Part shown: one piece after another, positions 2 to 26,450 of the stretch
Numbering within the stretch: the first letter of the stretch is position 1
Layout: each line of letters opens with the position of its first letter
Sequence record: SRR31156797_21105
Strand: one strand, 5' to 3'
DNA length: 43,000 nucleotides
Notes under the pieces: model-generated
Told to the model about the DNA's origin: nothing
The model's database searches: none
The model's input: only the letters and a program-made list of their open reading frames with translations
Made by a program: the position numbers and the translations under genes

Positions 2-1219
2 GAGGTTATGGCTGGTATGCAAAGCGATATAAGAAGCGATGTATACTCTGCGGGATTGCTTTTTTATGAAATGATAACAGGCAAGAACTTGCTTATACCG
101 CCATTTCAGATAAGACCGGTAAAAGAGTCTAGTGAATATTTGCCTGAATACCTTGATGATATTATAGAAAAGGCAACCGATTTCAATCAAACCAATAGAT
201 ATAAAACTGTAGAAGAATTTATTAATGCAATTGAATATCCTGAAATAAAGAAAAAACGACTAAACATATCCTCAAAGCTAATTATAGGTATAGCCATAGG
301 CTTTGTTGTGTTTATAGTAATTGGAACTACTTTCTATTTATTATCAAAACGAGATTTGGCTGTAAAGAACACCCTGGTTCCAACTGATGATATAGTGAAT
401 ACAATCACAGGCAATAATACTGAAAACATAGTGGATACGATTGCCAGCAATGGTACTGATGAGAGTGAAGTTATTGATAAAGCACAATACGAAGTGATTC
501 TGGAACTTGATTTTGAAGATAAATCTGATGCATCATGGTTTGAAATAGCAGGAGATAATGCAGATAGCATCGTAGCAGAAGATTGTATTGATAATGGCAT
601 ATTCACTTTAAAAGGACAAGTCGTATTAAAACAAGCTATTCAAATGGGAAAGTTTGTTCATATAAAAGCAACTTCACCTGATTTTGATAAAACAGGTTCA
701 ATGTTTATGCTGGATTTGACAAGCAGCAGTTGGAGTATGAACTCGGAGTTACAAATGTTTAGATTCTATTTTGAGAATAACAGACCTTTATCCTTTGGTG
801 TGAATAAACATACTGAATATGCATCTGTTAGTCAGATTGAAACAGCTATGATGATGAGAAGCAATATGACAGTAGACATTATTGTCTGGCTGAATGATGA
901 AGATAATTCAATTAGATATATTATTTGTGATTCAGTTGACAAAAGTGATATATGTCTTATGGGAGTAACGCTGGATGACAGCTTGATAAGTGAAACATGG
1001 ATGATAAATATTGAACTGGATACCGGGGTTTGGAATGGAGCTGTTACAGTAGAAGAACTATATACTGACATTGATTTTCTTAATGTTATATCTGGTTCGT
1101 TTACAGCGTATCTAGATGAAAATATCCCATCATATGCATTAAGGAAAGATAGTATAGAGAAATTCATCACTAACTCTGTTCCAAAAATGAGTGAGCTTAA
1201 TTATATGAAGTATGATTAG
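2..1219 (+). CDS. Transmembrane Hanks-type Ser/Thr protein kinase, 5'-truncated by the window edge (kinase C-lobe, one TM, large ectodomain)
   Basis: Frame is open from base 2 (E-V-M-A-G, probably the end of the APE motif). Subdomain IX SDVYSAGLLFYEMITG and subdomain XI '..NRYKTVEEF' are present, then TM LIIGIAIGFVVFIVIGTTFYLL and an acidic beta-rich ectodomain. Confidence 0.88.
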   Translation, partial: EVMAGMQSDIRSDVYSAGLLFYEMITGKNLLIPPFQIRPVKESSEYLPEYLDDIIEKATDFNQTNRYKTVEEFINAIEYPEIKKKRLNISSKLIIGIAIGFVVFIVIGTTFYLLSKRDLAVKNTLVPTDDIVNTITGNNTENIVDTIASNGTDESEVIDKAQYEVILELDFEDKSDASWFEIAGDNADSIVAEDCIDNGIFTLKGQVVLKQAIQMGKFVHIKATSPDFDKTGSMFMLDLTSSSWSMNSELQMFRFYFENNRPLSFGVNKHTEYASVSQIETAMMMRSNMTVDIIVWLNDEDNSIRYIICDSVDKSDICLMGVTLDDSLISETWMINIELDTGVWNGAVTVEELYTDIDFLNVISGSFTAYLDENIPSYALRKDSIEKFITNSVPKMSELNYMKYD

Positions 1220-1884: not shown

Positions 1885-3042
1885 ATGACAAATATCAGAA
1901 GAGAACTGAGGAAGATTAAGAATCAAGAAATAGGGCAGCAACAAGCAGTTATTCTAGAACTATTAAGTGAGGCAAAAGCAAAGTACCTTGGCTTAATAGC
2001 AAAAAGCATAAATAATAATGAGGTGTTAACAGAAGCTTTAGTTGATAAAGCAAAAGGCTTCCTTGACAGCAAAGATTGGAAAGAGAGGTATTGTGCACTA
2101 GAGGCAGTTAAGGATATAAAAAACGAACAAGTAAATACAATGTTTGTTCAATCACTAAATGACGCGTATAAGGGAATACTTGGATATGCAATTACAGAGT
2201 GCGGAAACAGGAAGCTAAAGGAAAGCGTTGATTTAATTATCCAAGCTTTTGAGATTGATGATTTACATGTCAAGATGAATGCAGCAGACGCATTGGGCAA
2301 TATTGGTGACAAAAAAGCAGTAGATGATCTTATAAGTCAGTTTAAGTATTATGATACCTCTATTAATAACAGTATTATAACTTCACATATAGCTGAAGCG
2401 CTTGGTAAATTAAAAGATGCAGATGCTATTCCAGTGCTTATGAAAGCTCATCAAACCGGAGAGATATTTATGGCCAACACTGAAATAGTGAATGCAATTG
2501 GTGAACTGGGAGCTAAAGACTATTTACCTACTCTTAGTAAATGGAGAGCATCCAGCAAATTATCTGATGAGCGTAATGCAATAAAAAAAATATATGGAAC
2601 TATAAAAGAGCCTTTGGTTATACCATATTTAACAAGCTGCTTGGAGGGAACATATGTAGACTGGGAAGAAACTGTCGTTATGCTTGGAAATACGGGCTGC
2701 ATTGAAGCTGCATCCTCAATTATTAATGGTACTGTATTTGCATCATTTCCGCAGTCATGGATAAGTAATGGATGGGTATCAAGGATACATCTTTCAGGTG
2801 CTATGGCATTACTGAAGCTGCCTCAAGCTGAAGTTCTTCCAATGCTGATTATGCATATAAAAGATTTGACACAAAAAAAGATGTGGTTACAAAGAAGTAT
2901 TTTTTATGATTTTTGTGCACCATTTATTGAGAGGATATCAGATTTAGATGCAAAGCCTTTACTTGAATCATTGCTGGAACACGAAAAAAAGTCAATACGA
3001 AATGCAGCGAAAAAAACTATAGATAGGATGAATAGTCAGTAA
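1885..3042 (+). CDS. HEAT-repeat (PBS-lyase-like) protein
   Basis: Repeated helices such as NAADALGNIGDKKAVDDLI, IAEALGKLKDADAIPVLM, IVNAIGELGAKDYLPTL and IRNAAKKTI; AGGAG RBS. Confidence 0.85.
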   Translation: MTNIRRELRKIKNQEIGQQQAVILELLSEAKAKYLGLIAKSINNNEVLTEALVDKAKGFLDSKDWKERYCALEAVKDIKNEQVNTMFVQSLNDAYKGILGYAITECGNRKLKESVDLIIQAFEIDDLHVKMNAADALGNIGDKKAVDDLISQFKYYDTSINNSIITSHIAEALGKLKDADAIPVLMKAHQTGEIFMANTEIVNAIGELGAKDYLPTLSKWRASSKLSDERNAIKKIYGTIKEPLVIPYLTSCLEGTYVDWEETVVMLGNTGCIEAASSIINGTVFASFPQSWISNGWVSRIHLSGAMALLKLPQAEVLPMLIMHIKDLTQKKMWLQRSIFYDFCAPFIERISDLDAKPLLESLLEHEKKSIRNAAKKTIDRMNSQ

Positions 3043-3083
3043 AAGAATAAGAAATCGTATATTTGTACTGCAGGGACAATATC

Positions 3084-3377
3084 ATGGCTGATAATATTAA
3101 AATAACATATCACTTTAAATGTAATGATGATATTTATATGATTATTGAAAATTGGGCTGAAAAATATGGAATTATTGAAGATAAATTCCCAAAACAGCTT
3201 GGAAGTGATGACCTAACTTATTGTTACAGCCTAAATGAAAACAATCAAAAGACATTGCTTACAATTAATATACTGGATGGAATAGTCTATATTGAAACGT
3301 GGATTATGGCAAGTATCAGTAGAGAGGAATTATCGAAAAAGCATATCAGTGAATTATTAGAAAAACTAAAAAATTAA
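3084..3377 (+). CDS. Hypothetical protein
   Basis: About 97-aa ORF co-oriented between neighbours; ATG at 3084 preceded by CAGGGA. Confidence 0.55.
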   Translation: MADNIKITYHFKCNDDIYMIIENWAEKYGIIEDKFPKQLGSDDLTYCYSLNENNQKTLLTINILDGIVYIETWIMASISREELSKKHISELLEKLKN

Positions 3378-3403: not shown

Positions 3404-5038
3404 ATGAAAAAAATTCTTATGATGATTGCAGTCGTGATGGTTTTAAGCCTAACTGCATGCAGTGAACAGACTGAAGTAGCACAGCCAACAGCAGAGCCAA
3501 CTGAACAGACAGAGACTGAACAACAAGAAAACGAGGATACTGAAATAGCTGACTGGGAGTATGACCAAGCAACAAAAACCCTTTTTGTAAATACGGATAT
3601 GGGAGCCTTTGAACCAGATGCGCCTGATTTTGACGGAACAACAAGCAACGCACCTTGGGCTGAGTATCTGCCAGAGATTGAAAACATTGTGGTTTCAGAC
3701 GATGTGACATATATCGGAGACTATGCTTTTGCCTTTTGTCAAAATCTAAAAAACGTTGAAGCTGGCAATAATATTGGAGCATTGGACTGCAGGTGTTTCT
3801 TTAAGTGCGGTGACTGGGATAACGATTCAAACATTGATTTTCACTTTAACAGCACACCAAGTTATGGTGATGATGTATTCGGCTACACTTGGGACAATCC
3901 TAATGTAATGATTTATGTGCCAGATGATATGAAGGAATACTGGGCAGAGTACATTATGCAAAAGGGAGAAATGAAACTTGATGGATATGAACTGAAAATG
4001 CAATTCTCAAGGGAAGATGTATTGTTTTCTTCGCTTATGAACCCTCAGGAGCTATGGGCAGAGGGAAGCGGGGGCTTTGCAGAAAATCAAGGCGGTGAAT
4101 TTGGCGGCGGAGCATCTGAAAAGAAATTTAATGAAAACGAAATGAGATTGGAAATGTTGTCTGATGATAATGGTGCATGTGTACCATTTAATACAAGCAT
4201 AATGACCTGTATGTCGGATGTAGGTAAAGACAAAACTCCACAGCAGGCTGTTATGATAAAGTTTTCAGCATCAAATGCAAGGGATATAAGATTCTCATTT
4301 GAGGCAATGGATGAGATTTCATTTAGTTTTAGAGATGATGGAATCTACTTTGTCGATGTTGCAAACTTCTTCGAAATGCCTATAACAGATTTTATGCCAA
4401 ACAATCTGGAGATAAAGGATGATACGATTTATTATTTCTTCTTTGCTTTTGATGCCGAAGGTAATATTCGTATGTTTATCTGGGAAGAGGGTTTAGCAGA
4501 AAATCAGGCTTACTTCGAGTATGACCTATACCAGGAGAGTAATGATATTAACAATAGTGATTTGAAGATGTATATTGGATTTGGTGCTAACGGGCAGTTT
4601 AATATCTATGAGTACTGGGTATATACATTTGATAGTTTTATGGACGGTATGCCATATGTGGTAAACACAAATACTCAAAGTAATGATATGCAGGATGGAA
4701 ATAATGATTATGGTCCATCTTGGAATATTAATATCGCTGGCAACTTTGATATTATGAGTGATATGGTGTGGCAGAGTGTAGAACTGCAGGATATAGATGC
4801 TGATGGTGATACATATGCAGGATATAATCTGGCGGAGATGATGAATTTCTCTGGTAATGGTCAGGATAATGCTATGATAGTCTTTGGTCAGCAGGGTGTA
4901 GACGGTATAGAAGTTCATTTAACACAGGATGCATATATTGTGTTTAAAAAGAATGATGAATTTTTAGATGGACCGTATTTGTTAAATGTTGACGGACTGT
5001 CTGAGTATCCAGTAATAGAAGTTCAAACAGATTATTAG
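3404..5038 (+). CDS. Acidic lipoprotein with a short BspA-like leucine-rich-repeat (LRR_5) domain and further beta domains
   Basis: Lipobox SLTAC; GGAGG RBS; APWAEYLPEIENIVVSDDVTYIGDYAFAFCQNLKNV is the typical BspA/TpLRR cap plus repeat. Confidence 0.8.
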   Translation: MKKILMMIAVVMVLSLTACSEQTEVAQPTAEPTEQTETEQQENEDTEIADWEYDQATKTLFVNTDMGAFEPDAPDFDGTTSNAPWAEYLPEIENIVVSDDVTYIGDYAFAFCQNLKNVEAGNNIGALDCRCFFKCGDWDNDSNIDFHFNSTPSYGDDVFGYTWDNPNVMIYVPDDMKEYWAEYIMQKGEMKLDGYELKMQFSREDVLFSSLMNPQELWAEGSGGFAENQGGEFGGGASEKKFNENEMRLEMLSDDNGACVPFNTSIMTCMSDVGKDKTPQQAVMIKFSASNARDIRFSFEAMDEISFSFRDDGIYFVDVANFFEMPITDFMPNNLEIKDDTIYYFFFAFDAEGNIRMFIWEEGLAENQAYFEYDLYQESNDINNSDLKMYIGFGANGQFNIYEYWVYTFDSFMDGMPYVVNTNTQSNDMQDGNNDYGPSWNINIAGNFDIMSDMVWQSVELQDIDADGDTYAGYNLAEMMNFSGNGQDNAMIVFGQQGVDGIEVHLTQDAYIVFKKNDEFLDGPYLLNVDGLSEYPVIEVQTDY

Positions 5039-5115
5039 AGGACTTTGCTTAATATAATGTTATCTGCATTGACTTAACATGATAGGTTCTGGACAAATAA
5101 TAGATGAAAATAGAA

Positions 5116-5147
5116 ACGGCTTAAGAGATGTTGATTTCTTAAGCCGT
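5116..5147. terminator. Probable bidirectional terminator between convergent genes
   Basis: ACGGCTTAAGA / TCTTAAGCCGT 11-bp stem flanked by A- and T-rich sequence. Confidence 0.7.
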
Positions 5148-5374
5148 ATTTATCAGTGGGAATAATTTATGATTGTTATATACATCATACCCAAGTTACA
5201 ATTTTTATTCAATTCAACTCCATGATAATTATGCAAAGAGAAATTACGTTCATCTAATTATAATAAAGTATCTATGAGTGAAGAGTAAACGCAAAACTCT
5301 TCCTTTATAATAGTAGTAGTAAACTACATATCTTCTGCATAAAAGCAAGATATAATACAGTGTTATATTTAATA

Positions 5375-6064
5375 TTATTGTGTTATAGTCTCACCATCGT
5401 GTTTTAGCATTGTAATAGCTTTGACACTTTCAATATTCTTTATTTGAGATGCAAATTCACTATCATTTTTTACATTTGAGAGTTCAATAACAAGTTCAAT
5501 ATCATCATTGAACATACTTCTGCTCATTATTTGGAAATGCCTTGCTTTTTCTTTTATATATTTCATTAATACTTCTTCAGCCTTCACATCATTAAATTTG
5601 ACTACCAGAACTTGAGGAGCCTTCTTTAATGGTATCAATTGATATAGAGTTATGCCTATTGCAATTATTAGGCAGCTAACTATTGCCAAGAGGTACAAAC
5701 CAGCACCAGTTATTATTCCTATCGAAATGGACCAGAACATGAATAAAAGGTCTATTGGATTTTTTATAGCCGTCCTAAAGCGCACAATTGAAAGGGCTCC
5801 TACCATACCTAATGATATAACAATATTTGATTGTACTGCCAAAACAATAGCACAAGTAACCACTGAAACCATGCACATTGCTAGCACATACCCTTTTGAA
5901 TACGGAATATCTTTGACAGTAAATCTGTATACAAAAAACATAAAGAATGACAAGAGCAGTGACAAACAAAGAACAAAAATCATCATTTCTATTGTGATTT
6001 CTTTCAAATAGCCCTCAACAAATGTTTTTTTAAACATATCAGTAAATCTAATCATTTCATCCAA
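5375..6064 (-). CDS. DUF4956 family membrane protein (copy 1)
   Basis: Signature SLGMVGALSIVRFRTAIKNPIDL; several TM helices then a soluble ACT-like C-terminal domain; directly after a VTC-domain gene. Confidence 0.88.
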   Translation of the reverse strand: MDEMIRFTDMFKKTFVEGYLKEITIEMMIFVLCLSLLLSFFMFFVYRFTVKDIPYSKGYVLAMCMVSVVTCAIVLAVQSNIVISLGMVGALSIVRFRTAIKNPIDLLFMFWSISIGIITGAGLYLLAIVSCLIIAIGITLYQLIPLKKAPQVLVVKFNDVKAEEVLMKYIKEKARHFQIMSRSMFNDDIELVIELSNVKNDSEFASQIKNIESVKAITMLKHDGETITQ

Positions 6065-6068
6065 AATT

Positions 6069-6770
6069 CTATCCTCCGTGTTTTAACTTTGTTTTTCCCT
6101 GTGTCGCCATACGACACAATAAATATTTAGAGCAAGCCTGATTCTTGCCATAATCCATCTGTAATAACTGCCTTATATACTCTGGCAGAAATGTATCATA
6201 TTTTATCTCAAGTATACTTTCGTTTGCACTTAGTACAGGAACATGCGAGGAATCCGGCTCAAAGAAAGAGAGATTCACTGGTGCTGATAATTGTGTATCA
6301 AAAGTTATCCGTACATTCCCAGCTTCACATACAAATGCGTTCCTGATATAATTAACAATCTGCATAGGTCTGAGCAGTCTTGTCTTTTTCAAAAGAAGTA
6401 GTTCATTAATAAGTTTATTATCGCAGAAATCTTCAAACATATTATCACAATTTAGTAGTGTTTCAGCCGCTTGTTTTGAAATTAATGTTCTATTCTTATA
6501 GCAATACTCACCTATTTTGATTTTTTTCTCTAGAAAAATGGTATTAATATCATTATTATATGTACGCAGTCTAAACTTTCCACGCTCATATTTTCCAGCC
6601 AATTTATCGTAAAGCCCACTATCTGTTACATCATCAAAGTATATACTTTTGATCAAATATCCGTTTTCATCATCAAACCTATCCCTTTCAAGAATAGGGT
6701 TAAGCCTGTGAAAGAGCTTTATCCTAGTTCTTTCATCTATAATATATTTATGTTCATGACGATACTTCAT
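6069..6770 (-). CDS. Polyphosphate-polymerase (VTC / CYTH-TTM) domain protein (copy 1)
   Basis: RHEHKY, IKSIYFD, KFRLRTY, FLEKKIK, YIRNAF, VRITFD, ILEIKY and SKY motifs. Confidence 0.9.
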   Translation of the reverse strand: MKYRHEHKYIIDERTRIKLFHRLNPILERDRFDDENGYLIKSIYFDDVTDSGLYDKLAGKYERGKFRLRTYNNDINTIFLEKKIKIGEYCYKNRTLISKQAAETLLNCDNMFEDFCDNKLINELLLLKKTRLLRPMQIVNYIRNAFVCEAGNVRITFDTQLSAPVNLSFFEPDSSHVPVLSANESILEIKYDTFLPEYIRQLLQMDYGKNQACSKYLLCRMATQGKTKLKHGG

Positions 6771-6787
6771 CTCTACATATCCTATCT

Positions 6788-8464
6788 TTATCCGAGTATT
6801 TCACCATCTAAATAATCAAGACGACTCTCTAACCATTGTGAAATATATTCTAGTTCTGATTCAACATCTAACGGACGGAAGGCAATACCTAGAATTTCAG
6901 CATTTTCCATGGTTTCATTCCACCTACTAGCCTCACGTCTTAATGCACCAGATGAATCAAGTAAATCATAAGCAGTATAAAACCTTGACATTAGCACGCT
7001 CAATGAAAACTCATCTTGACGCAGTTGTTTCCATTTTTCTACTAATGCATCATTGAAAGAATCAGTGTCTTGTTCCATAAGACGATCATATAGACCGTTT
7101 GTTATTATTCCAGTCTCCGGAGTAATTTCATTTTGCCAGCTGCGTCCAACACAATCATCCAAATCCCATGCAGTAATAAATATTTTGCGTTTTTCTGCTG
7201 TCTCGGTATCTGCTACAGAGTAAAATATATTTTTACCCATATTACCGGTTCCGCCTACAAGATTTATAAACAGATAATATTCTATAAGATTATCATAATC
7301 TATCATTGCAGATATTTTTTCATTAAAGCTCTCATCGTCACCTGCTGTTGTGAGATAAGCAAGCTCATAAAAAGGTTCCCAGTCATATATGTACATTTTT
7401 TCATTTGTATTTGGATATGTAATAACCATTCCCCCCCAGCTTTCTTCAGCCATTACTGGAGTCTCAGGTATGTCCCTAAACGAGTTTATCATCTTACCGT
7501 TATATGTCATTGATATGCCTTTGTATAGTAAACCTCCACCTAAGCCATTATCATTCAGAGCTAAGCCCAATTGCTTACCGTCAATTCTTTCATGTAAAAA
7601 ATATATACCCTTATATTCATTATCTAAATAAAGTTCAATGTACATTCCTCTGCACCCATTGACAACATTTTCATCATAATACACAGTACTAATATCGCAC
7701 CATAAATCCATCAATACGTTTTTACGCATTCTTGAATAATCATTATATGCACCCTCAAGTACCCAATCGTCATCTTTTCTTAGATTAGGAAAGGAAACAT
7801 CGACTTTATTAATGTCTGAATCAATGAATTTGAGATTATAATTCTTCTTATCATACTGTAATGATGTATTTCCACGTACCTCAACTCTTGCTAAGTTAGT
7901 CTCTTGAGTAGTATATTCTGGGTTATTTGGATCATAAAAATAAAACTGATTAACTGAAGTGTTAATAGATAGACATGTCATAATTGGCAGCTTTGTAAAT
8001 TTAAGGTAGTAATTCTCATTCACACCATTGTTAGAAATTGTAATTTCATAATTTTTTTCAAAGGACACCTCAACGCCTGTATCCTTACTGATTTCTATAC
8101 CATCCAGTAAAATGCAGTCTGATTCATTGTAAAATTCGATATCTAATGTAACTATATCGCCTTGTAATATATCCTCAGACAGCGGCATCAGAAACGTATT
8201 CGATATACTGTCATACGCACATATAGTTTCGTTTATTTTCAATGTTTGATCTTCGATATTAATTTCTTCAAAAGATGACATTCCTTCTTCTACTTCATCA
8301 AGTTTCAACTCGTAAGAATAATCGTGTTTTTCTAAAAAAGCAGCAACTACATTTTCGGGTCCAAGCTGACTTTTCATTATTGAATATCCCAAGAAGATGC
8401 ATGCTAAAATGACAATAAATATAAGTAAACGCAATGTTCTCTTTATGTTAATTCTCTCTGTCAT
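6788..8464 (-). CDS. CotH-family kinase with N-terminal membrane anchor (copy 1)
   Basis: RGNTSLQYDKKNY, DDDWVLEGAYNDYSRMR, YLDNEYKGIYFLHE, GNMGKN and AWDLD motifs; TM LLIFIVILACIFLGYSIM. Start placed at ATG 8464 (ORF track starts at 8512). Confidence 0.88.
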   Translation of the reverse strand: MTERINIKRTLRLLIFIVILACIFLGYSIMKSQLGPENVVAAFLEKHDYSYELKLDEVEEGMSSFEEINIEDQTLKINETICAYDSISNTFLMPLSEDILQGDIVTLDIEFYNESDCILLDGIEISKDTGVEVSFEKNYEITISNNGVNENYYLKFTKLPIMTCLSINTSVNQFYFYDPNNPEYTTQETNLARVEVRGNTSLQYDKKNYNLKFIDSDINKVDVSFPNLRKDDDWVLEGAYNDYSRMRKNVLMDLWCDISTVYYDENVVNGCRGMYIELYLDNEYKGIYFLHERIDGKQLGLALNDNGLGGGLLYKGISMTYNGKMINSFRDIPETPVMAEESWGGMVITYPNTNEKMYIYDWEPFYELAYLTTAGDDESFNEKISAMIDYDNLIEYYLFINLVGGTGNMGKNIFYSVADTETAEKRKIFITAWDLDDCVGRSWQNEITPETGIITNGLYDRLMEQDTDSFNDALVEKWKQLRQDEFSLSVLMSRFYTAYDLLDSSGALRREASRWNETMENAEILGIAFRPLDVESELEYISQWLESRLDYLDGEILG

Positions 8465-8472
8465 ATCTATAT

Positions 8473-8501
8473 AATATACTATATGCTTTTTCTTATTGCA
8501 A
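8473..8501 (-). promoter_or_regulatory. Putative sigma-A promoter of CotH cassette 1
   Basis: TTGCAA-17 bp-TATATT on the minus strand, 8 nt upstream of ATG 8464. Confidence 0.5.
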
Positions 8502-8636
8502 TACTTAAGCAAACATATTGGTGATTTTACCTTTGCTCTTACTTATAAGGATTAAAAAGAATTCAGAATATTAGATAATAAAGTTTTTATCTGTAAATTG
8601 AAAACCCAAAATTGATATTTTACTAAGGAGGGCAAT

Positions 8637-10667
8637 GTGCATTCTAGCATAAAAACACATTTCCCCAATATTAAAATGATTATAATTTATTTAGAATGTT
8701 TGTTGGAATTCAAAATATCGACTTATAATACTATATATGTTATATGTATATGTTGTACGTATTGCGTATTTACAATAAAAATATATTGTGATAAACTAAA
8801 AGGATTGTTAGGAAAACAAACTGGTATGAAGAGTATTTTGCCCAAAATGTCTAATAAATCTCGGAATAGAGGATATTTTATACTACTAATATTGTTTCAA
8901 GTATTAGTAGTATTTATGTACTTCTTTCTAAAGTGGAAACTAGGAATAAGTGACATTGAAGTATATAAAGTTATACAAGATAATGATTTCCCACGGATTG
9001 AGATTGAAGGATACAAAAACTTTGATGGAGAGGGCAAAAGTGCTGCAAATATCAAATACTATAATCAAGGTCTTGTTTTTGAAGAAACAGTAGATGTTTC
9101 TATACAAGGTGGCACATCAATATATTATCCTAAAAAAAATTACAATATAGATATTCTTATAGATGGTTCTACAATTAGTTCAGCTGATGAAAGCAGCATT
9201 CAATTCGGCGATTGGTACAAAATGGACAGATACTGTCTAAAAGCAAATTATGTAGATTTCAGCATGGCGAGAAATACTGTTGCTTCAAAGCTATGGGGGG
9301 ATATAGTAGAAAGCCGTGACAATATTAACCCTAATTTAGAGGAGATAGTTAATTACGGTGCTGTAGATGGTTTTCCTGTAGCGTTGTATTTGAACGGAAA
9401 ATACAAAGGTATTTATAATGTAAACACTTCAAAGGACTGTTTGTTTTACAATATGCAGAAAGGCAGTATGCAGGCTGTATTATTTGGAGATAATTTAGAT
9501 TCTGTAACAGTTCAATTAAAGGAAACATCCGATTCATCCCCACCAAATGGCGGTTGGCAGTTAGTATATAATTCTGAAGATAATACTGAATGGATAACCG
9601 AGAGCTTTAATCGGCTTATTGCTTTTAATTTGAACAATGATGATGAAGCATTTAAGCAGGGCATTAGTAAATATTTAGATGTAGAAGCAGCTATTGATTA
9701 TTTAATATACTATCAGTTTTTTAGTCTAGTGGATAATCAATACAAGAACATGATGTGGGTCACATATGATGGAACACAATGGATTCCATCTGCATATGAT
9801 TTGGATAAATCATTTGGTTTAAATTTAGATGGTATAGGATTCTTTAACCTCGATGTACTAATGCCATACTATGACAGCAAGGAACAGATCTTCTATGCCA
9901 ACAGCGAGAATGCATTATGGAACAGATTACTCAATACTCACAGAGAGGAAATAGCTGATAGGTATTTTGAACTGAGAGAGGGAGCGTTAAGTATTGAGAA
10001 TATTTCAGCAAGATTTAATGAGTTTAATGGTGAAATTCCTCAGGAACTGTTTAGGATTGAGGCAAAGCTATGGCCTGGAATCCCAAGCCTGAACATTTCT
10101 GATATTAGTACTATAATGGATTATCAAATAAAAAGAGCAGAAGTAATGGATAATTTCTATTTATTATATGCTCAGGAAGATGGTTTCCAATCAAGCGGAT
10201 GTGAAGAATTTACAAAATATACTGTAACTATTGAGTGCCCTCTTCGAGAGAGTGATTTAACATTTAAAATGGATTATAACCAAGTATTTGATATAAATGA
10301 AATAATGAAAAGCCCTTCTGCTGAATATGAGTTTGATAAGCTTGTATATAAAGACAGCGACGTGGAATTTGCAGATGGCACAGCTATTACACAGGATACT
10401 GAGCTGGAAATCATATGGAAAGCTGCGGAGGTAAAGCAGCAAATAGTTGTAGAAGCTCCAGAACCAGCAGTTGAGAAATCTTTAAAAGAAAAGACTGATG
10501 ATTTCGTTGTTAAAGTTAAGCAATTTATTAGTAAAGTCAAAACATTTATCATGGAGACGAAGTCAGAATCGTTCTTTGTTTCAATATTTGTTATTATATT
10601 TATAATCCTTATTGTTACATATAAAATCAGAGTAGGAAAGGATAAGCACGGTAATAACTGCGGGTAA
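8637..10667 (+). CDS. CotH-family kinase with N- and C-terminal TM helices and a degenerate InlB-B-repeat-like domain (copy 2); start is 8637, 8826 or 8847
   Basis: QGGTSIYYPKKNY, YCLKANYVDFSMARN, DGFPVALYLNGKYKGIY, LVDNQYKN and AYDLDKSFG motifs; TM segments GYFILLILFQVLVVFMYFFL and FFVSIFVIIFIILIVTY. AAGGAGG precedes GTG 8637, but a TTTACA-17-TAAACT promoter-like site at 8769-8797 favours the later starts. Confidence 0.88.
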   Translation: MHSSIKTHFPNIKMIIIYLECLLEFKISTYNTIYVICICCTYCVFTIKIYCDKLKGLLGKQTGMKSILPKMSNKSRNRGYFILLILFQVLVVFMYFFLKWKLGISDIEVYKVIQDNDFPRIEIEGYKNFDGEGKSAANIKYYNQGLVFEETVDVSIQGGTSIYYPKKNYNIDILIDGSTISSADESSIQFGDWYKMDRYCLKANYVDFSMARNTVASKLWGDIVESRDNINPNLEEIVNYGAVDGFPVALYLNGKYKGIYNVNTSKDCLFYNMQKGSMQAVLFGDNLDSVTVQLKETSDSSPPNGGWQLVYNSEDNTEWITESFNRLIAFNLNNDDEAFKQGISKYLDVEAAIDYLIYYQFFSLVDNQYKNMMWVTYDGTQWIPSAYDLDKSFGLNLDGIGFFNLDVLMPYYDSKEQIFYANSENALWNRLLNTHREEIADRYFELREGALSIENISARFNEFNGEIPQELFRIEAKLWPGIPSLNISDISTIMDYQIKRAEVMDNFYLLYAQEDGFQSSGCEEFTKYTVTIECPLRESDLTFKMDYNQVFDINEIMKSPSAEYEFDKLVYKDSDVEFADGTAITQDTELEIIWKAAEVKQQIVVEAPEPAVEKSLKEKTDDFVVKVKQFISKVKTFIMETKSESFFVSIFVIIFIILIVTYKIRVGKDKHGNNCG

Positions 10668-10671
10668 ACGC

Positions 10672-11364
10672 ATGTATAGAAACGAACTAAAATATATATG
10701 TTCGATAGCTCAATCAGAAATACTGAAAATTCGTCTGAAGGCAATAGCAAAGCCTGATATGCATTCCAACTCAAATGGGATGTATAATGTGCGTAGCATG
10801 TATTTTGATGACTTAAAGAACTCAAGCTTCTATGAAAATGAAAGCGGTACTGATCCCAGAGAAAAATATAGAATAAGAATATATGACTGTTCAAAGAAGA
10901 TAAATCTGGAGCTAAAGTCCAAAGTGAATACAAAGACTCAAAAGCGAGTTACCCCAATAGGCATGGATGATTACAATCTTTTACGAGCTTCCAAGCCGGT
11001 TGAGACAGATGATAGTACATCGCCGTTATTACGCAGAATGTCTACAGATATACAGAATAGAATGCTGCGGCCGGTAGTAATTGTTGATTATAATAGAGCA
11101 GCATATACCTATAGTGTAGGAAATGTTAGAATTACCTTTGATACAAATATATCGTCATCTAATTCGTTTGATAAGTTCTTTGATAAGGATATACAAAAAC
11201 GCAGTATTTTACCTACAGGATATAGCATACTTGAAGTGAAATATGATAATTTCATTCCAGATTTTATTAAAAATACTTTACAAACTGATAGTTTAATCAA
11301 TACATCATTCTCAAAATTTTACTTATGTAGAAAATACAATATGGCTGGAGGCTTATTAATATGA
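10672..11364 (+). CDS. Polyphosphate-polymerase (VTC / CYTH-TTM) domain protein (copy 2)
   Basis: RNELKY, VRSMYFD, KYRIRIY, NLELKSK, YNRAAY, VRITFD, ILEVKY and FSKF motifs. Confidence 0.9.
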   Translation: MYRNELKYICSIAQSEILKIRLKAIAKPDMHSNSNGMYNVRSMYFDDLKNSSFYENESGTDPREKYRIRIYDCSKKINLELKSKVNTKTQKRVTPIGMDDYNLLRASKPVETDDSTSPLLRRMSTDIQNRMLRPVVIVDYNRAAYTYSVGNVRITFDTNISSSNSFDKFFDKDIQKRSILPTGYSILEVKYDNFIPDFIKNTLQTDSLINTSFSKFYLCRKYNMAGGLLI

Positions 11365-12035
11365 ATTACTCTGATATTTTCAGAAAAACTTTTATCGAAG
11401 GATATAGTGCGGCGAATATTACTGTTATAAATGTGGTACTTACTATTGCTATAACTTCGCTTATTGGACTGTATCTATTCTTTGTACATAGATTGATAAC
11501 CAGAAAGACCTTTTATGATAAGGCATTCAGTCTGTCATTACCTACATTAGCAATTATAACAGCAGCTATTATAATGACTATTCAGTCAAGCATTGTAATT
11601 TCGCTGGGTATGGTAGGTGCATTGTCTATTGTTAGATTCCGTACAGCGATTAAGAGTCCGATGGATTTGGTATTTCTGTTTTGGGCAATAGCCATAGGAA
11701 TTATCTGCGGTGCAGGTTTTGCAGAGATAGCAATAATTATTTCTGTATTTTTGACCGTGGGCATATTTTTGCTTGATCTTATTCCTGTTATCAGATCATC
11801 TCAGCTGCTTGTTGTAAATGCTGATAATTATGATGTTGAAGATGAGCTGATTGCTGTAATGAATAAATTGTGTAAGCATTATAAGATTAAATCTCGTAAT
11901 ATCTCTGAAGGCAATTTAGACATAATAGCAGAAGTGCGTGTGAAAGATGATAGAAAATTGGTTAAAGAGGTTTTTGAGATAAATGGCATAAAAAACGCTT
12001 CATTACTGACTCATGATGGAGAGGTTTCTTTTTAA
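11361..12035 (+). CDS. DUF4956 family membrane protein (copy 2)
   Basis: SLGMVGALSIVRFRTAIKSPMDL; ATGA overlap with the VTC gene and GGAGG RBS. Confidence 0.9.
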   Translation: MNYSDIFRKTFIEGYSAANITVINVVLTIAITSLIGLYLFFVHRLITRKTFYDKAFSLSLPTLAIITAAIIMTIQSSIVISLGMVGALSIVRFRTAIKSPMDLVFLFWAIAIGIICGAGFAEIAIIISVFLTVGIFLLDLIPVIRSSQLLVVNADNYDVEDELIAVMNKLCKHYKIKSRNISEGNLDIIAEVRVKDDRKLVKEVFEINGIKNASLLTHDGEVSF

Positions 12036-12709: not shown

Positions 12710-12784
12710 TGGCTGGGGCGGTAGGATTCGAACCTACGAATGCTGGAGTCAGAGTCCAGTGCCTTACCGCTTGGCGACGCCCCA
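12710..12784 (-). tRNA. tRNA-Gln, anticodon CTG, CCA encoded
   Basis: Minus strand reads TGGGGCGTCGCCAAGCGGTAAGGCACTGGACTCTGACTCCAGCATTCGTAGGTTCGAATCCTACCGCCCCAGCCA: cloverleaf, GTTCGAATC T-loop, anticodon loop CT-CTG-AC. Confidence 0.97.
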
Positions 12785-13895: not shown

Positions 13896-14043
13896 GAACT
13901 ATTACTTTTTGTATATGTATAGTGCTGTTATATGCAGTACTGTAAATATAAATAATGTGGTCGGTTTGTTTATGATTAACATAACAACAGGCTGTAAAAT
14001 TGATTAGAGAGTCTAACAACAAAACCCTAAGGAGAACATGCGC

Positions 14044-14604
14044 ATGAAAAAATTATTTAAAGTTACAACTAAGACTATCGTTGCAACTGGTCTAGGAGCA
14101 GCACTTTTTACGCTGCTGTTTATGTTTGTAAAAATACCATCTCCAGTACCAGAAACTAGTTTCCAAACTGCTTACGGCCTTTCAGGCATGTTTGCAACAT
14201 TATTCGGACCAATTTGCGGATTTTTAATTTCATTTATAGGACACGCATTATCTGACGCAATTCAGTATGGCTCACCATGGTGGAGCTGGGTACTTGCCAG
14301 TGGTATTTCTGGTTTTGTATTCGGTTTTGCATACAGAAAAGTACGTGCTAATGAAGGTGACTTCAAAGGCAAAGATATCTTAAGATACAATGTTATCCAA
14401 GTAGTAGGCAACATTATTGCATGGATTATTGTAGCTCCTTTATTAGATATAATCATTTATGCTGAACCAGTTAACTTGGTATTCACACAAGGCGCAATTG
14501 CTTGTGTTATGAATTCAATTAGTGCTGGTGTAATTGGTACTTTACTGCTAATTGCATATGCTGCAACAAGAACCAAAAAAGGTAGCTTATCAAAAGAAGA
14601 ATAA
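14044..14604 (+). CDS. ECF transporter S component, UPF0397/MtsT-like
   Basis: TKTIVATGLGAALF, IPSPVPET, LFGPICGFLISFIGHALSDAIQYGSPWWSW and KKGSLSKE; AAGGAG RBS; upstream of ECF A-A' and T genes. Confidence 0.85.
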   Translation: MKKLFKVTTKTIVATGLGAALFTLLFMFVKIPSPVPETSFQTAYGLSGMFATLFGPICGFLISFIGHALSDAIQYGSPWWSWVLASGISGFVFGFAYRKVRANEGDFKGKDILRYNVIQVVGNIIAWIIVAPLLDIIIYAEPVNLVFTQGAIACVMNSISAGVIGTLLLIAYAATRTKKGSLSKEE

Positions 14605-14626
14605 TCTAGTATAAGTGAGGAAAATC

Positions 14627-16336
14627 ATGAACGATAAACCGATTATTGCATTCAAAGACTTCTCTTTTCAATATTATAGTCAACAAGAACCAACATTGAA
14701 TGACATTAACCTGGAGATATTCTCAGGTGAAAAAATACTTATTATAGGACCAAGCGGCAGTGGGAAAAGTACACTTGGACACTGCATTAATGGACTAATT
14801 CCTTTTTATTATAAGGGCAGTATATCGGGCTCTTTAAAAGTAAATGGTATGAAGACCCAAGATCAGGATATTTTTAAGCTGTCAAAAATAATTGGTACGG
14901 TATTGCAGGATACTGATGGTCAATTTGTGGGATTATCTGTAGGTGAAGATATAGCATTTTCCATGGAAAATGACTGTGTTCCTCTAGAAGAAATGAGACC
15001 GCGAGTTAAAGTTATTTCTGAAATGGTAGACATGGATAAATGGCTGTCGTCCTCTCCATTTGAACTTTCCGGCGGTCAAAAGCAAAGAACTGCACTTGCA
15101 GGAGTAATGGTAGATGATGTTGATGTACTGTTATTTGACGAACCGCTTGCAAACCTTGATCCTGCAACTGGAAAACAAGCAATTGAAATAATCCATGATA
15201 TCAGCAAAGATCAGGACAAAACTATTATAATAATTGAGCATCGTTTAGAGGATGTATTGTATTGTGATATTGATAGAATAATTGTGATAAATGATGGAAA
15301 GATACTTGCGGATATGAATGCTCATGAGCTGGTTGCTTCGGATGTTTTGAAGGATAACGGAATACGAGAACCCCTGTATGTCACAGCATTAAAATATGCA
15401 GGAATTGATGTAAATGAGTCATTGCAGGCAGGGCATATAAACACATTAAAACTAAATGATAGTGAAAAGGCAAAAGTTAGAGAATGGCATAATTCAATTC
15501 TGCGACAGAGCCCTGATAGAGATAAAAACGCAATATTACAAATGAAAAACATTAATTTCAGTTATGAAAAAGATAAACAAATATTAAAGGAAGTTAATAT
15601 TGATATTTTAGAGGGCGAAATGCTGGCTTTAGTAGGAAGAAATGGAGCAGGCAAATCTACAATCGCAAAGCTTTTATGCGGCTTTGAAAAACAAGATAGT
15701 GGTACTATATACTATAATGGAATTGATATCGCAGATAAAAGCATTAAAGAACGTGCGGAGATGATAGGCTATGTAATGCAGAATCCTAACCAGATGATTT
15801 CGCAAAACCTGATATATGATGAGATAGCACTTGGGTTAAGGCTGAGAAATGCAGATGAAGAAGAAGTTGATAAAACGGTGAAAAAGGTACTGAAGATATG
15901 CGGTCTACTGCCTTTTAGGAAATGGCCGATTTCAGCACTCAGCTATGGTCAGAAAAAGCGTGTTACTATCGCTTCTATACTGGCACTGCATCCTAAAGTA
16001 ATTATATTAGATGAACCTACTGCAGGACAAGATTATAAGCATTACACTGAGATAATGGAATTCTTGGTGGAAATAAATAAAACAGGTATAACCGTATTGA
16101 TGATTACTCATGACATGCATTTGATGCAGGAATATACGCCAAGAGCAGTAGTGCTGTCGGATGGAGTAGTGATAGAAAATAATGCTGCATCAGTAGTGCT
16201 TACAGAACATAATGTAATAGATGCTGCTAATTTAAAGGAAACATCCTTGTATCAGCTGGCACAGATAGTAGGAATAGCAGATGAAACTGATTTTGTTCAA
16301 GGATTTATTGACTATGAAAGGCGGTTAAGAGCATGA
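14627..16336 (+). CDS. ECF transporter fused double ATPase (A-A', MtsU-like)
   Basis: Two ABC domains: GPSGSGKST / LSGGQKQR / DEPLANLD and GRNGAGKST / LSYGQKKR / DEPTAGQD; GIREPLY linker. Confidence 0.93.
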   Translation: MNDKPIIAFKDFSFQYYSQQEPTLNDINLEIFSGEKILIIGPSGSGKSTLGHCINGLIPFYYKGSISGSLKVNGMKTQDQDIFKLSKIIGTVLQDTDGQFVGLSVGEDIAFSMENDCVPLEEMRPRVKVISEMVDMDKWLSSSPFELSGGQKQRTALAGVMVDDVDVLLFDEPLANLDPATGKQAIEIIHDISKDQDKTIIIIEHRLEDVLYCDIDRIIVINDGKILADMNAHELVASDVLKDNGIREPLYVTALKYAGIDVNESLQAGHINTLKLNDSEKAKVREWHNSILRQSPDRDKNAILQMKNINFSYEKDKQILKEVNIDILEGEMLALVGRNGAGKSTIAKLLCGFEKQDSGTIYYNGIDIADKSIKERAEMIGYVMQNPNQMISQNLIYDEIALGLRLRNADEEEVDKTVKKVLKICGLLPFRKWPISALSYGQKKRVTIASILALHPKVIILDEPTAGQDYKHYTEIMEFLVEINKTGITVLMITHDMHLMQEYTPRAVVLSDGVVIENNAASVVLTEHNVIDAANLKETSLYQLAQIVGIADETDFVQGFIDYERRLRA

Positions 16337-17166
16337 AATCTTCTTTATTCTCTGCACAAAAGCTGGATACGCCGATTCATAATCTTTCTGGTCTTACGAA
16401 ATTGCTTTGCTTTTTGCTTCTGACAGGAGCTGTGATGTTTTCATATGATCTGAGAGTAATCCTTGTTATTATGGTATTTTCGTTTTCCATGCTTCGCTTG
16501 GCGGAAATTAAATTTTCACAAATTAAGGTAATGGTGATTTATGTTTTAGTTTTCTTGCTAGTTAATGCAGTGCTCACCTTCTTTTTCTCACCAAACTATG
16601 GTACAGATGTTTATGGTACTAGAACGGAATTGTTCAAAATCTTTGGTCCATATACTGTAACATCAGAGACCTTATTCTTTATAATAACAAAGTTTGCAAA
16701 ATATGCATCTGTCATCCCACTTGGCATGATATTCTTTTTAACCACTGACCCTAGTGAGCTTGCTGCTTCAATGTCTGGAATAGGACTTCATTACAAAGCA
16801 TCTTATTCTCTTGCTTTGACTCTTCGCTATTTTCCAGAAGTTCAGAGGGAATATCGGGATATATCTCAGGCACAGCAGGCAAGGGGTTTGGAAATGTCAA
16901 AAAAGGCTAAGTTATGGGATAGATTTAAGCGAGCAATTTCTATTATCTTGCCTTTAATTTTGTCCACAATGGATAGAATAGACACAATAACAAATGCAAT
17001 GGATTTGAGAGGCTTTGGAAAAAATAAAAAGAGAACTTGGTATAGGAAAAGGAAACTAAAAAAGAATGATTATATTGCACTTGGTATTTCAATAATCATT
17101 TTGCTGTGTACCATTGCAGTTTCTGTATTTATAAATCACAGTAGATTCTATAATCCGTTTATTTAA
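16333..17166 (+). CDS. ecfT: ECF transporter T component
   Basis: TM helices plus the two Arg motifs AQQARG and AMDLRGF; ATGA overlap. Confidence 0.92.
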   Translation: MKSSLFSAQKLDTPIHNLSGLTKLLCFLLLTGAVMFSYDLRVILVIMVFSFSMLRLAEIKFSQIKVMVIYVLVFLLVNAVLTFFFSPNYGTDVYGTRTELFKIFGPYTVTSETLFFIITKFAKYASVIPLGMIFFLTTDPSELAASMSGIGLHYKASYSLALTLRYFPEVQREYRDISQAQQARGLEMSKKAKLWDRFKRAISIILPLILSTMDRIDTITNAMDLRGFGKNKKRTWYRKRKLKKNDYIALGISIIILLCTIAVSVFINHSRFYNPFI

Positions 17167-17189
17167 TAAAAGCATATAAGGAGGAAAAC

Positions 17190-18035
17190 GTGAAACAATT
17201 AATAGTATTTTTGACTGACTTCACTTACAAAGAGGGTGCTATATGTGCAATGTATGGAGTAGTAAAAAGTGTAGATAGAGATTTAGATATAATAGATGGT
17301 ACCCATGAGCTGCCTCAGTATGATACTTGGAGTGCATCTTATAGAATATATCAATCTATGAAATTCTGGCCTAAAGGCACAGTTTTTGTTTTGGTTGTAG
17401 ACCCTGGTGTCGGAACACCAAGAAAAGCATCGGTTGCTAAAACTAAAGACGGTTATTATGTTGTGTCTCCGGATAATGGCTCATTAACTCATTTGAAACT
17501 TAAAGTAGGCATAGAAGAAATAAGAGAGATAGATGAGACTATAAACAGGCTTAAAGGTAAGGATACTGAGGAGGTTGCAATATTTCATGGACGTGACCTA
17601 TTTGGATATTGTGGTGCAAGGCTTGCTAGTGGTGTAATAACATTTGAACAAGTTGGACCATCTTATCCCGTTAAAGACATCATTGAACATGAGATTCTAG
17701 AGCCAATAGTAGAAGATGGCAAAGTGAAAGGGATAATAGAAATTCCGGATCCGAACTTTGGAAATTCATGGACCAATATTCCTCTTAGTGTATTTAAATC
17801 TGTAGGATTTGAGTACGGAGATATGCTGGATGTTGTGATAAAAAATAAAGATGAGGTTATATTTGAGGAGAAATTACTGTTCCATCAATCATTTGGATAT
17901 GCAGAAAAGGGACAGCCAATGATTTATAATAATGAGCTTATGCATATAGCTTTTGCAGTAAACCAGGGCAGCTTTTTTGGTAATTATAATATTGGGTATG
18001 GTGCTGATTGGACCGTTGAATTTTCAAAGAATTAA
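17190..18035 (+). CDS. DUF62 / SAM hydroxide adenosyltransferase (SAM hydrolase) family, paralog 1
   Basis: FLTDF, VVDPGVGTPR, PDNG, FHGRD, FGNSWTN and AVNQG motifs; AAGGAGG RBS, GTG start. Confidence 0.92.
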   Translation: MKQLIVFLTDFTYKEGAICAMYGVVKSVDRDLDIIDGTHELPQYDTWSASYRIYQSMKFWPKGTVFVLVVDPGVGTPRKASVAKTKDGYYVVSPDNGSLTHLKLKVGIEEIREIDETINRLKGKDTEEVAIFHGRDLFGYCGARLASGVITFEQVGPSYPVKDIIEHEILEPIVEDGKVKGIIEIPDPNFGNSWTNIPLSVFKSVGFEYGDMLDVVIKNKDEVIFEEKLLFHQSFGYAEKGQPMIYNNELMHIAFAVNQGSFFGNYNIGYGADWTVEFSKN

Positions 18036-18073
18036 CTTTTTGATTTTCATACAGTGATATAAGGAGAGATATA

Positions 18074-18919: not shown

Positions 18920-18941
18920 ATAAACTTAATATAAATGATTT

Positions 18942-18972
18942 AAGTTGCCATATAATATTTATGTGGCAACTT
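18942..18972. terminator. Stem-loop ending the ECF/DUF62 operon
   Basis: AAGTTGCCATATA / TATGTGGCAACTT inverted repeat. Confidence 0.7.
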
Positions 18973-19939: not shown

Positions 19940-19941
19940 AT

Positions 19942-24449: not shown

Positions 24450-24475
24450 CTTAATGACTTTACAATAATTCTAAC

Positions 24476-26438: not shown

Positions 26439-26450
26439 GGAAGATATACT

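Follow-up and report, generated by a model that had tools for sequence, protein, structure and literature searches.

Locus organization

The window described here is a stretch of 43,000 nucleotides from sequence record SRR31156797_21105. Positions 5,375 to 12,035 carry two complete cassettes of the same three gene families, CotH, VTC and DUF4956, transcribed divergently from a common spacer (Table 1). The left cassette is called A and the right one B, and the genes and proteins carry the same letter. The locus consists of two anciently separated operons, standing back to back, of a widespread and mechanistically uncharacterised module. It is a rare arrangement of a common module that is known and unexplained.

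All six proteins score above the curated Pfam cut-off of their own family (CotH PF08757, 23.8 bits; VTC PF09359, 23 bits; DUF4956 PF16316, 30.6 bits) and belong to these families. The gene order given in the original prediction, DUF4956<-VTC<-CotH and CotH->VTC->DUF4956, was borne out by six intact open reading frames (ORFs) at the predicted positions and by their Pfam matches. The complete cassette that had been proposed for each arm was likewise found, and it is a tight operon, with intergenic gaps of 17 and 4 nt in cassette A, a gap of 4 nt in cassette B and a 4-nt overlap of the VTC_B stop with the DUF4956_B start.

The two arms are diverged. CotH_A and CotH_B are 25% identical over 329 aa, VTC_A and VTC_B 36% over 220 aa, and DUF4956_A and DUF4956_B 39% over 221 aa. 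The longest inverted DNA repeat between the arms measures 28 nt at 75% complementarity, which is chance level for AT-rich DNA. The G+C content is about 0.28-0.34 over the cassette region and similar in the flanks. The mirror pair might be thought an assembly artefact or a very recent inverted duplication, an idea that comes from the symmetric layout only; nothing else was found in its favour. Because of the 25-39% protein identity and the missing long inverted repeat this is excluded as far as can be read from the DNA itself, in agreement with the earlier judgement. The components also fall into different tree clades (see below), and relatives of genes of both arms occur on 8,888-bp contigs of an independent data set. 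The probability left to an artefact or a recent duplication is negligible.

The latter contigs carry relatives of CotH_A (P0121, 77% identity), CotH_B (P0422) and DUF4956_B (P0001, 87%), each on a contig of exactly 8,888 bp. The link of P0422 to CotH_B is indirect: it shares a 90%-identity cluster with P0153, and the comparison with CotH_B, giving 70% identity, was made for P0153. This suggests, and does not prove, that one independent assembly carries the same head-to-head locus. The named closest relatives of DUF4956_B come from Christensenellales and Lachnospiraceae genome bins.

Table 1. Positions of the cassette genes and of further features in the window
Feature	Position	Strand	Remarks
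DUF4956_A	5375-6064	-	last gene of cassette A; Pfam PF16316, 48.8 bits
VTC_A	6069-6770	-	233 aa; Pfam PF09359, 122.3 bits
CotH_A	ORF 6788-8512, likely gene 6788-8464	-	Pfam PF08757, 123.1 bits
Gly407 codon of CotH_A	7244-7246	-	catalytic-Asp column; GTGNMGKN instead of xxDNxxKN
Divergent intergenic region with both promoters	8465-8825		right part 8637-8825 may encode the N-terminal extension of CotH_B
CotH_B	ORF 8637-10667, or 8826-10667	+	Pfam PF08757, 91.5 bits
VTC_B	10672-11364	+	230 aa; Pfam PF09359, 127.1 bits
DUF4956_B	11361-12035	+	Pfam PF16316, 55.4 bits
Kinase-like gene	2-1219	+	window starts inside the gene
HEAT-repeat protein	1885-3042	+	385 aa
BspA-type leucine-rich repeat protein	3404-5038	+	544 aa; lipoprotein-like N-terminus
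Inverted repeat	5110-5153		20 nt, 85% complementary, 4-nt loop
tRNA-Gln (CTG)	12710-12784	-	675 nt downstream of cassette B
ECF-type transporter and following genes	14038-18919	+	downstream of a GntR/UTRA regulator
Stretch of higher G+C content	23001-31000		G+C 0.39-0.43
DUF6034 protein	36085-37545	+	between ABC-transporter ATPase genes
KAP-family P-loop NTPase	41234-42439	-	near the window end

CotH proteins

CotH_A is 558 aa long from ATG 8464, in a reading frame that is open to TTG 8512. The ATG is most likely the start, because the 77% identical relative P0121 aligns from residue 1. CotH_B has 676 aa from GTG 8637 or 613 aa from ATG 8826. The GTG is preceded at a distance of 5 nt by a strong Shine-Dalgarno sequence (AAGGAGG, 8625-8631), so that the longer form may be the real one; it would add an N-terminal extension of 63 aa with a further hydrophobic stretch. 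Depending on this start the divergent spacer is 172 or 361 nt long. A promoter scan was uninformative in the AT-rich DNA (57 sites, 47.7 expected).

Hydropathy analysis shows a single N-terminal hydrophobic segment in CotH_A (residues 11-29 of the 558-aa form), followed by an acidic body of 529 aa. CotH_B has two such segments (17-35 and 583-601 of the 613-aa form), basic termini and an acidic body of 547 aa. Since the hydrophobic anchors stand beside short basic cytoplasmic ends and the bodies are acidic, the latter should lie outside the membrane, and both proteins are predicted to be outward-facing. The difference in anchors that had been described for the two CotH proteins is thus confirmed by hydropathy. 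The B-repeat-like domain ascribed to CotH_B is unsupported, as residues 440-585 match no Pfam family even at E<=5.

A CotH family profile that includes both window proteins matches the B. cereus CotH structure 5jd9_A with E 1.5e-37; a single-sequence search with CotH_B against PDB sequences gave chance-level matches only. Asp224 and Asp247 of 5jd9_A are 23 residues apart, like D228 and D251 of B. subtilis CotH, and the mapping of D228 was inferred from this equal spacing and a constant offset of +4. The D228Q exchange inactivates B. subtilis CotH, as does mutation of D251 (PMC7821199). CotH_B keeps both residues, the catalytic-loop Asp in LVDNQYKN (codon 9732-9734) and the metal-binding Asp of the WD-x-D motif in YDLDK. 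CotH_A has the metal-binding Asp (WDLDD) and carries Gly407 in place of the catalytic one.

Among 152 rows, consisting of the two window proteins and the best 150 cluster representatives of 2,610 matches, the catalytic column holds Asp in 149 and Gly in three (CotH_A, P0121 and P0287); the D251-equivalent column holds Asp in 151 of the 152. A smaller alignment of 23 CotH rows lacks the catalytic Asp only in CotH_A and its 77% relative. The remaining invariant CotH columns are kept in CotH_A (G198, K206, K207, R247, N408, N412, D434 and D436). P0287 is just 31% identical to CotH_A and shares with it the TGNM motif and the Gly at the catalytic-Asp column. As TGNM is kept both in this distant protein and in the 77% relative, the Gly407 proteins look like a small, maintained Asp-less subfamily rather than a product of decay. 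After P0121 a word-indexed search lists CotH_A relatives of 26-34% identity, most of them with a Por_Secre_tail domain and the sole named one from a Bacteroidota genus; an exhaustive search finds a few closer ones, up to 42% identity.

VTC proteins

VTC_A and VTC_B contain no hydrophobic segment by hydropathy analysis. Structures were predicted for VTC_B and DUF4956_B. The AlphaFold model of VTC_B has a mean predicted local distance difference test (pLDDT) score of 95.5 and a predicted template modelling (pTM) score of 0.90. Its ten best Foldseek matches are all chains of Vtc4 or the VTC complex from yeast, with 3g3r_B first (E 4.9e-14, TM-score 0.70-0.72); triphosphatases and class IV cyclases rank after Vtc4, with E of about 1e-7 to 1e-8 and TM-scores of about 0.5. 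The PDB sequences matched by a profile of 54 VTC rows were those of Vtc4 and Vtc2 alone (E 3.3e-10), and a search with the single VTC_B sequence gave chance-level matches only.

In yeast Vtc4 the residues K200, R264, R266, K281, Y359, R361, E426, S457 and K458 hold the triphosphate and Mn; mutating them lowers polyphosphate, and K458 separates the active Vtc4 from the inactive Vtc2 and Vtc3 (10.1101/2023.01.27.525886). By alignment of hidden Markov models seven of these nine were mapped: K7, R67, R69, K82, Y140, R142 and E188 of VTC_B align to K200, R264, R266, K281, Y359, R361 and E426, with S457 and K458 outside the aligned stretch. Vtc4 numbers were obtained as chain index + 185, which reproduces the published residue numbers. 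All seven mapped residues are invariant in 54/54 rows, both window copies included, and VTC_A carries all 26 invariant columns of this alignment. Both window proteins are predicted to be stand-alone, cytoplasmic, Vtc4-like triphosphate-tunnel proteins.

DUF4956 proteins

Both DUF4956 proteins have three to four strong hydrophobic segments and a C-terminal tail of 83-89 aa. For DUF4956_A the count is three segments and an 89-aa tail, and it is predicted to be a polytopic membrane protein with a C-terminal soluble domain. The model of DUF4956_B (pLDDT 81.4) shows a short N-terminal helix, five helices in residues 22-140 and a beta-alpha-beta-beta-alpha-beta domain in residues 148-217. This soluble domain matches an ACT domain in the PDB (3ibw_A, E 6.9e-4, TM-score 0.65 on the target) and other ferredoxin-like folds. 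The fold search matched DUF4956_B to no VTC membrane chain, and a DUF4956 profile found no match among PDB sequences.

Conservation within the family is highest in SLGMVGALSIVRFRTAIK, where R92, R94 and K98 are invariant. An NCBIfam model of MgtC/SapB shows a weak resemblance to DUF4956_A over residues 77-219 (E 3e-6). The ACT-like domain and this similarity agree with the account of the Streptococcus intermedius protein in PMC12345266.

Survey of related loci

With an alignment of DUF4956 as query, 80 loci were retrieved, each from a different species-level genome; they are the best 80 of at least 597. Most are from Lachnospiraceae and Oscillospiraceae; Paenibacillaceae, Clostridiaceae, Treponema and other taxa make up the rest. 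The window proteins then served as queries of an iterated profile search over the 3,820 ORFs of the 80 loci and the window. Within the 80 loci the best identities to the window proteins are 54% and 43% for DUF4956, 49% and 43% for VTC and 24-29% for CotH.

The commonest order is CotH-VTC-DUF4956 (29 loci), followed by VTC-DUF4956-CotH (20) and by VTC-DUF4956 with no CotH detected (16). CotH and DUF4956 with no VTC detected were found in four loci, two upstream CotH genes in three (one of these being a split gene), a CotH divergent from the pair in two and DUF4956-VTC-CotH in two. One locus each shows DUF4956 alone, CotH on both sides, two CotH genes downstream, and a tandem of two complete cassettes on the same strand (L011). 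The mirror layout occurs in none of the 80, a sample that is biased to relatives of DUF4956_B and holds no close relative of either window cassette.

CotH was found in 63/80 loci, usually within tens of bases of the pair. VTC is directly followed by DUF4956 in 74 pairs, of which 17 show the 4-nt stop/start overlap seen in cassette B. Early hydrophobic segments (first 120 aa) are present in 66/67 CotH ORFs of the related loci, and 12/67 have a late one too, like CotH_B; 73/76 VTC ORFs have no hydrophobic segment. An exported CotH with a cytoplasmic VTC is thus the predicted rule.

The two cassettes of L011 lie at 7360-10675 and 17024-19950, about 6.3 kb apart; this is the sole related locus with two complete cassettes. 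Its VTC and DUF4956 copies fall into different subclades and its CotH copies into different classes. Two full CotH genes stand beside one VTC-DUF4956 pair in L017, L039, L047 and L057. The two copies are mutual closest relatives in L047, L039 and L057, which points to local duplication. The idea that loci with two CotH genes combine an active with an Asp-less protein was ruled out, since both CotH proteins of L017 and both of L011 retain the Asp. The CotH proteins of L023, L042 and L004 have xxDWP...N and KWRWMLFD instead of DN..KN and PWDxD and are part of a separate 20-row class.

Phylogenetic analysis

The VTC and DUF4956 trees were built from 54 rows, the two window copies and 52 copies from 51 loci. 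A full-length VTC ORF was the criterion, set in advance, for including a row, and 29 loci were left out on this ground. In the VTC tree 16 rows with VTC_A (clade I) separate from 38 rows with VTC_B (clade II), with support 99/98. The same 16 rows lie on one side of the deepest split of the DUF4956 tree (96/74), and none of 500 label shuffles gave as low a value. Many small clades are identical between the two trees. VTC_A is sister to L070 (98/88). Both pair members of cassette A are in clade I and both of cassette B in clade II, and the two cassettes of L011 also keep their VTC-DUF4956 partners together. The VTC-DUF4956 pairs of the window stem from separate deep lineages.

Over 44 rows the pairwise distances of VTC and DUF4956 correlate with r=0.80, and those of either with CotH at 0.44 and 0.53. 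Within clade II the values are 0.77, and 0.32 and 0.36. VTC and DUF4956 are a tightly co-inherited pair; this is expected from their tight linkage and speaks of co-inheritance, not of binding specificity.

The CotH tree was calculated by a quick method from 66 of 71 ORFs (five fragments dropped) and 381 columns of the kinase core. It contains four classes, one of them confined to eleven clade-I loci. The two window proteins share a 14-row class (support 97) that is otherwise attached to clade-II pairs. Placing CotH_A with the eleven clade-I proteins is rejected by the approximately unbiased (AU) test with p=0.00097, a group that was named post hoc and with a long CotH_B branch (2.42).

The original prediction had suggested for each cassette an obligate three-part machine with cognate partners. 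Its claim holds for VTC and DUF4956 as a unit of inheritance, given the congruent trees and r=0.80. A cognate, obligate CotH is not supported, in view of the 17/80 loci without a detected CotH, the loci with two CotH genes, the correlations of 0.44 and 0.53, the incongruent tree and the AU test. Our reading of the trees is that VTC-DUF4956 forms a conserved core and that CotH would have been exchanged between such cores.

Genomic context

The following refers to the co-directional gene clusters and immediate neighbours of the 80 loci; recurrent clusters were annotated from one representative each. The clusters include GT2 glycosyltransferases in 23 cases, Bac_transf in 10, LytR-CpsA-Psr in 9, GlmS and ABC-2 permease in 6 each, Cthe_2159 in 5 and GtrA in 4; at least one cluster of the glycopolymer type is present in 26/80 loci. 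Among immediate neighbours, of which 139/143 were annotated (the four longest left out), the commonest families are GT2 (10), response regulators (6), and GDP-mannose dehydratase-type proteins, GtrA and nucleotidyl transferases (4 each). On a RefSeq plasmid of Pseudobutyrivibrio xylanivorans, CotH, a polyphosphate polymerase domain protein and DUF4956 lie inside an exopolysaccharide locus, amid glycosyl-, acyl- and pyruvyl-transferases. The related module is often co-directional with glycopolymer genes.

The trio has been described before. In streptococci and clostridia cotH, a polyphosphate polymerase gene, DUF4956 and DUF4832 are accessory genes contiguous with pelDEADAFG, and in bifidobacteria the first three accompany a diguanylate cyclase/phosphodiesterase gene (PMC7112168). 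In S. intermedius deletion of SIR_1592 (DUF4956-like) raised Pel and deletion of SIR_1594 (CotH) lowered it, and each lowered aggregation in artificial sputum medium by over 50% (PMC12345266). The authors of that study report that they did not find synteny of the trio outside the Pel locus. In other contexts the trio occurs in the present window, in the Pseudobutyrivibrio plasmid locus and in those related loci whose neighbours were scanned, a scan that covered part of the 80. Among the 31 other window ORFs (at least 100 aa, E<=1e-4) neither a Pel-type family nor DUF4832 was found. The original statement that no functional description of the module is known is nearly right; on record are the occurrence of the trio in pel loci (PMC7112168) and deletion phenotypes for two of its genes (PMC12345266). 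A mechanistic account was not found in the literature searched, which excludes subscription-only papers.

The window starts 5.4 kb upstream of cassette A, and upstream genes are seen only to that point. It opens inside a gene whose first 76 or so residues match a Hanks-type Ser/Thr kinase domain in its C-terminal part (positions 182-266 of a PknB-type model, E 1.4e-9); the other 330 or so residues match no family. The HEAT-repeat protein lies 2.3 kb from cassette A. As a conserved partner of the module, a lead taken from NELoc-2 (see below), it was dropped, having no relative in the 80 loci and no plasmid match. The upstream ORFs at 8-1219, 1369-1845 and 3063-3377 have no relatives in the 80 loci either, and the leucine-rich repeat protein has none there or on plasmids. 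The inverted repeat listed in Table 1 lies between the convergent ends of the genes for the leucine-rich repeat protein and DUF4956_A. It may be a two-way terminator; a simple terminator scan did not flag it and gave one terminator-like site in all, with 2.9 expected.

The tRNA-Gln gene downstream of cassette B stands in a 1.1-kb stretch with no ORF of at least 80 aa, and no integrase or recombinase was seen near it among the window ORFs scanned. It was the only hit of an Rfam scan, which showed no riboswitch near the cassettes. Tandem repeats in the window are trivial short ones only. Further downstream an energy-coupling factor (ECF)-type transporter is encoded (riboflavin-type S component, fused double ATPase, CbiQ), followed within the same stretch by two tandem paralogues of S-adenosylmethionine hydroxide adenosyltransferase. 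The region of higher G+C content (0.28-0.37 elsewhere) contains an Opp-type peptide ABC transporter, a PrpD/MmgE-family gene and a gene for 5-enolpyruvylshikimate-3-phosphate synthase. An FtsX/MacB-type permease lies downstream of the DUF6034 gene.

Proposed function

Topology, active-site conservation, gene coupling and context suggest as the most likely working model, possible and still short of probable, that polyphosphate is made inside the cell, passed out by DUF4956 and used by the outward-facing CotH on wall polymers. VTC would make polyphosphate from ATP at the inner membrane face. An oligomer of DUF4956 would carry the chain across the membrane, with the invariant SIVRFRTAIK as the path and the ACT-like domain as a gate. 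In the yeast VTC complex the chain passes, as it is synthesised, through a pore with a lining of K/R rings (10.1101/2023.01.27.525886), to which the basic motif of DUF4956 may be likened, and the VTC-DUF4956 pair would be a bacterial analogue of the eukaryotic synthase-translocase. CotH would use the exported phosphoanhydride, where ATP is scarce, to (poly)phosphorylate a wall glycopolymer or a surface protein.

The two cassettes might serve different substrates or conditions; that they do different jobs is argued from the Asp-less CotH_A and the different lineages of the cores. With Gly for the catalytic Asp, CotH_A could be a non-catalytic binder or scaffold, or have an altered chemistry, beside the canonical CotH_B. 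The fully specified version of the model is a bacterial counterpart of the VTC machine, with a Vtc4-like polymerase docked on a DUF4956 oligomer and exporting polyphosphate to extracellular CotH kinases that modify wall glycopolymers independently of ATP, here with CotH_B and the Asp-less CotH_A side by side under divergent promoters. In this detail it is rather unlikely.

Several points weigh against the export model. To our knowledge no activity, export or substrate has been established for any bacterial member of the module, and we know of no evidence that a CotH fold uses polyphosphate. Known CotH kinases use ATP (PMC7821199). The fold search relates DUF4956_B to no channel; its PDB matches are confined to the soluble domain, and its membrane part was modelled with middling confidence (block means 59-91). 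The sole family resemblance of DUF4956 is that to MgtC/SapB, and the proteins do not belong to that family (27 and 17.2 bits, cut-off 214); MgtC is moreover described as a regulator, not a transporter (PMC12345266). The invariant S214-K215 of the VTC alignment is probably the equivalent of S457-K458 of Vtc4, by order and spacing only, with no alignment by a tool. No glycosyltransferase lies near the cassettes in the window. CotH was not detected in 17/80 loci, nine of which are flanked by at least 8 kb to either side, so the VTC-DUF4956 pair has a role without a neighbouring CotH.

About as likely as the export model, and equally short of probable, is that VTC and DUF4956 make or regulate intracellular polyphosphate. 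DUF4956 would then be an MgtC-like anchor or sensor with a ligand-binding ACT-like domain and not a conduit, CotH would act independently outside, with released ATP or non-enzymatically, and the linkage would reflect co-regulation in envelope or exopolysaccharide programmes. The MgtC/SapB similarity and the ACT-like domain, which are typical of regulators, agree with this, as do the loci in which CotH is undetected and the incongruence of the CotH tree with that of the pair. In S. intermedius the SIR_1593 (VTC) mutant still aggregated and kept Pel, and no change was singled out for it, which also weighs against the export model; the other two deletions had opposite effects on Pel (PMC12345266). 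A purely regulatory link explains poorly, however, why CotH adjoins the pair in 63/80 loci of many families, and a common task across the membrane is suggested by the way in which enzyme, membrane protein and kinase are consistently distributed over cytoplasm, membrane and exterior. For a kinase exported into the cell wall of an anaerobe there is no obvious supply of ATP, which also counts against a purely intracellular polyphosphate.

Two other explanations are improbable. The cassettes could be redundant duplicates with cassette A decaying and CotH_A on its way to a pseudogene; Gly407 stands at the catalytic column, and the equivalent D228Q protein of B. subtilis is inactive (PMC7821199). 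Yet all three genes of cassette A are intact ORFs, the other invariant CotH columns are kept, and TGNM persists in relatives of 77% and 31% (P0287) identity, which points to a maintained subfamily. As the VTC and DUF4956 proteins of A and B fall into different deep clades, the cassettes are not simple duplicates. Equally poor are the chances that the VTC proteins are hydrolases or cyclases of the tunnel fold (a triphosphatase, polyphosphatase or nucleotide cyclase) and produce or remove a signal sensed by the ACT-like domain of DUF4956. Triphosphatases and class IV adenylate cyclases have the tunnel fold as well and are among the matches of the fold search, but Vtc4 chains are better by about six orders of magnitude in E-value and also by TM-score. 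Among solved structures the profile finds only Vtc4 and Vtc2, and the residues mapped to the triphosphate site of Vtc4 are invariant.

The many exported CotH proteins, for example those of cellulosomes, pel loci and Bacteroidota secretion substrates, raise the question of how a kinase can work in surroundings poor in ATP. The predicted layout of exported CotH, cytoplasmic VTC and conserved membrane protein suggests a testable answer, with polyphosphate as the exported donor. If true, the export model would describe the first bacterial polyphosphate exporter and a new route by which phosphate is added to surface polymers in gut and rumen Firmicutes. Should this mechanism prove wrong, the locus would be merely two copies of a common operon of unknown function. 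The window adds to the evidence for VTC-DUF4956 as the conserved core and CotH as the exchangeable part; it also offers a natural pair of diverged modules for swap experiments and a natural Asp-less CotH subfamily.

Comparison with known systems

Both window CotH proteins share the Pfam CotH match with the proteins of Bacillus subtilis and B. cereus (5jd9). They differ in being membrane-anchored, with the body predicted outside and extra N- or C-terminal regions that have no Pfam match, in their non-sporulation context and linkage to VTC and DUF4956, and, for CotH_A, in the missing catalytic Asp.

With the eukaryotic VTC complex (yeast Vtc4, Vtc3 and Vtc1) the module shares the Pfam VTC domain, a VTC_B model closest to the tunnel domain of Vtc4, seven invariant mapped active-site residues and an enzyme gene tied to a membrane-protein gene. 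An SPX domain and a fused three-helix membrane domain, of the kind that builds the pentameric channel of the eukaryotic complex, were not found in the window proteins, which at 230-233 aa consist of the VTC domain only. The DUF4956 partner has about four to five helices and an ACT-like domain and is not of the three-helix Vtc1 type (10.1101/2023.01.27.525886). Export would go to the cell exterior, whereas the yeast product enters the vacuole.

MgtC/SapB/YhiD proteins resemble DUF4956 in having a membrane domain followed by a small ACT-like C-terminal domain, and one source names a DUF4956 relative 'YhiD'. DUF4956 nevertheless forms a Pfam family in its own right, marked by an invariant SLGMVGALSIVRFR motif, and scores far below the MgtC/SapB cut-off.

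For locus NELoc-2 of Clostridium perfringens a table lists a VTC domain protein, a 226-aa membrane protein, a resolvase, a second VTC domain protein, a 222-aa membrane protein, CotH, and proteins of 685 aa (hypothetical) and 377 aa (HEAT-repeat) (PMC2879425). Its proteins annotated as 'tubulin/FtsZ' would be DUF4956, judging by size and position. Compared by its table description, NELoc-2 resembles the window in having two VTC pairs in one locus and a HEAT-repeat neighbour of similar size; it differs in having one CotH for two pairs, which stand in tandem around the resolvase, and in the glycosyltransferase that follows (PMC2879425).

The pel accessory set (PMC7112168; SIR_1594-1592 of S. intermedius, PMC12345266) comprises the same three families in one operon. 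The topology predicted for it in S. intermedius is likewise that of a secreted CotH and of a protein with four transmembrane segments and an intracellular ACT domain (PMC12345266). The window differs from it in lacking pel families and DUF4832 among the 31 ORFs scanned and in carrying the set twice, head to head.

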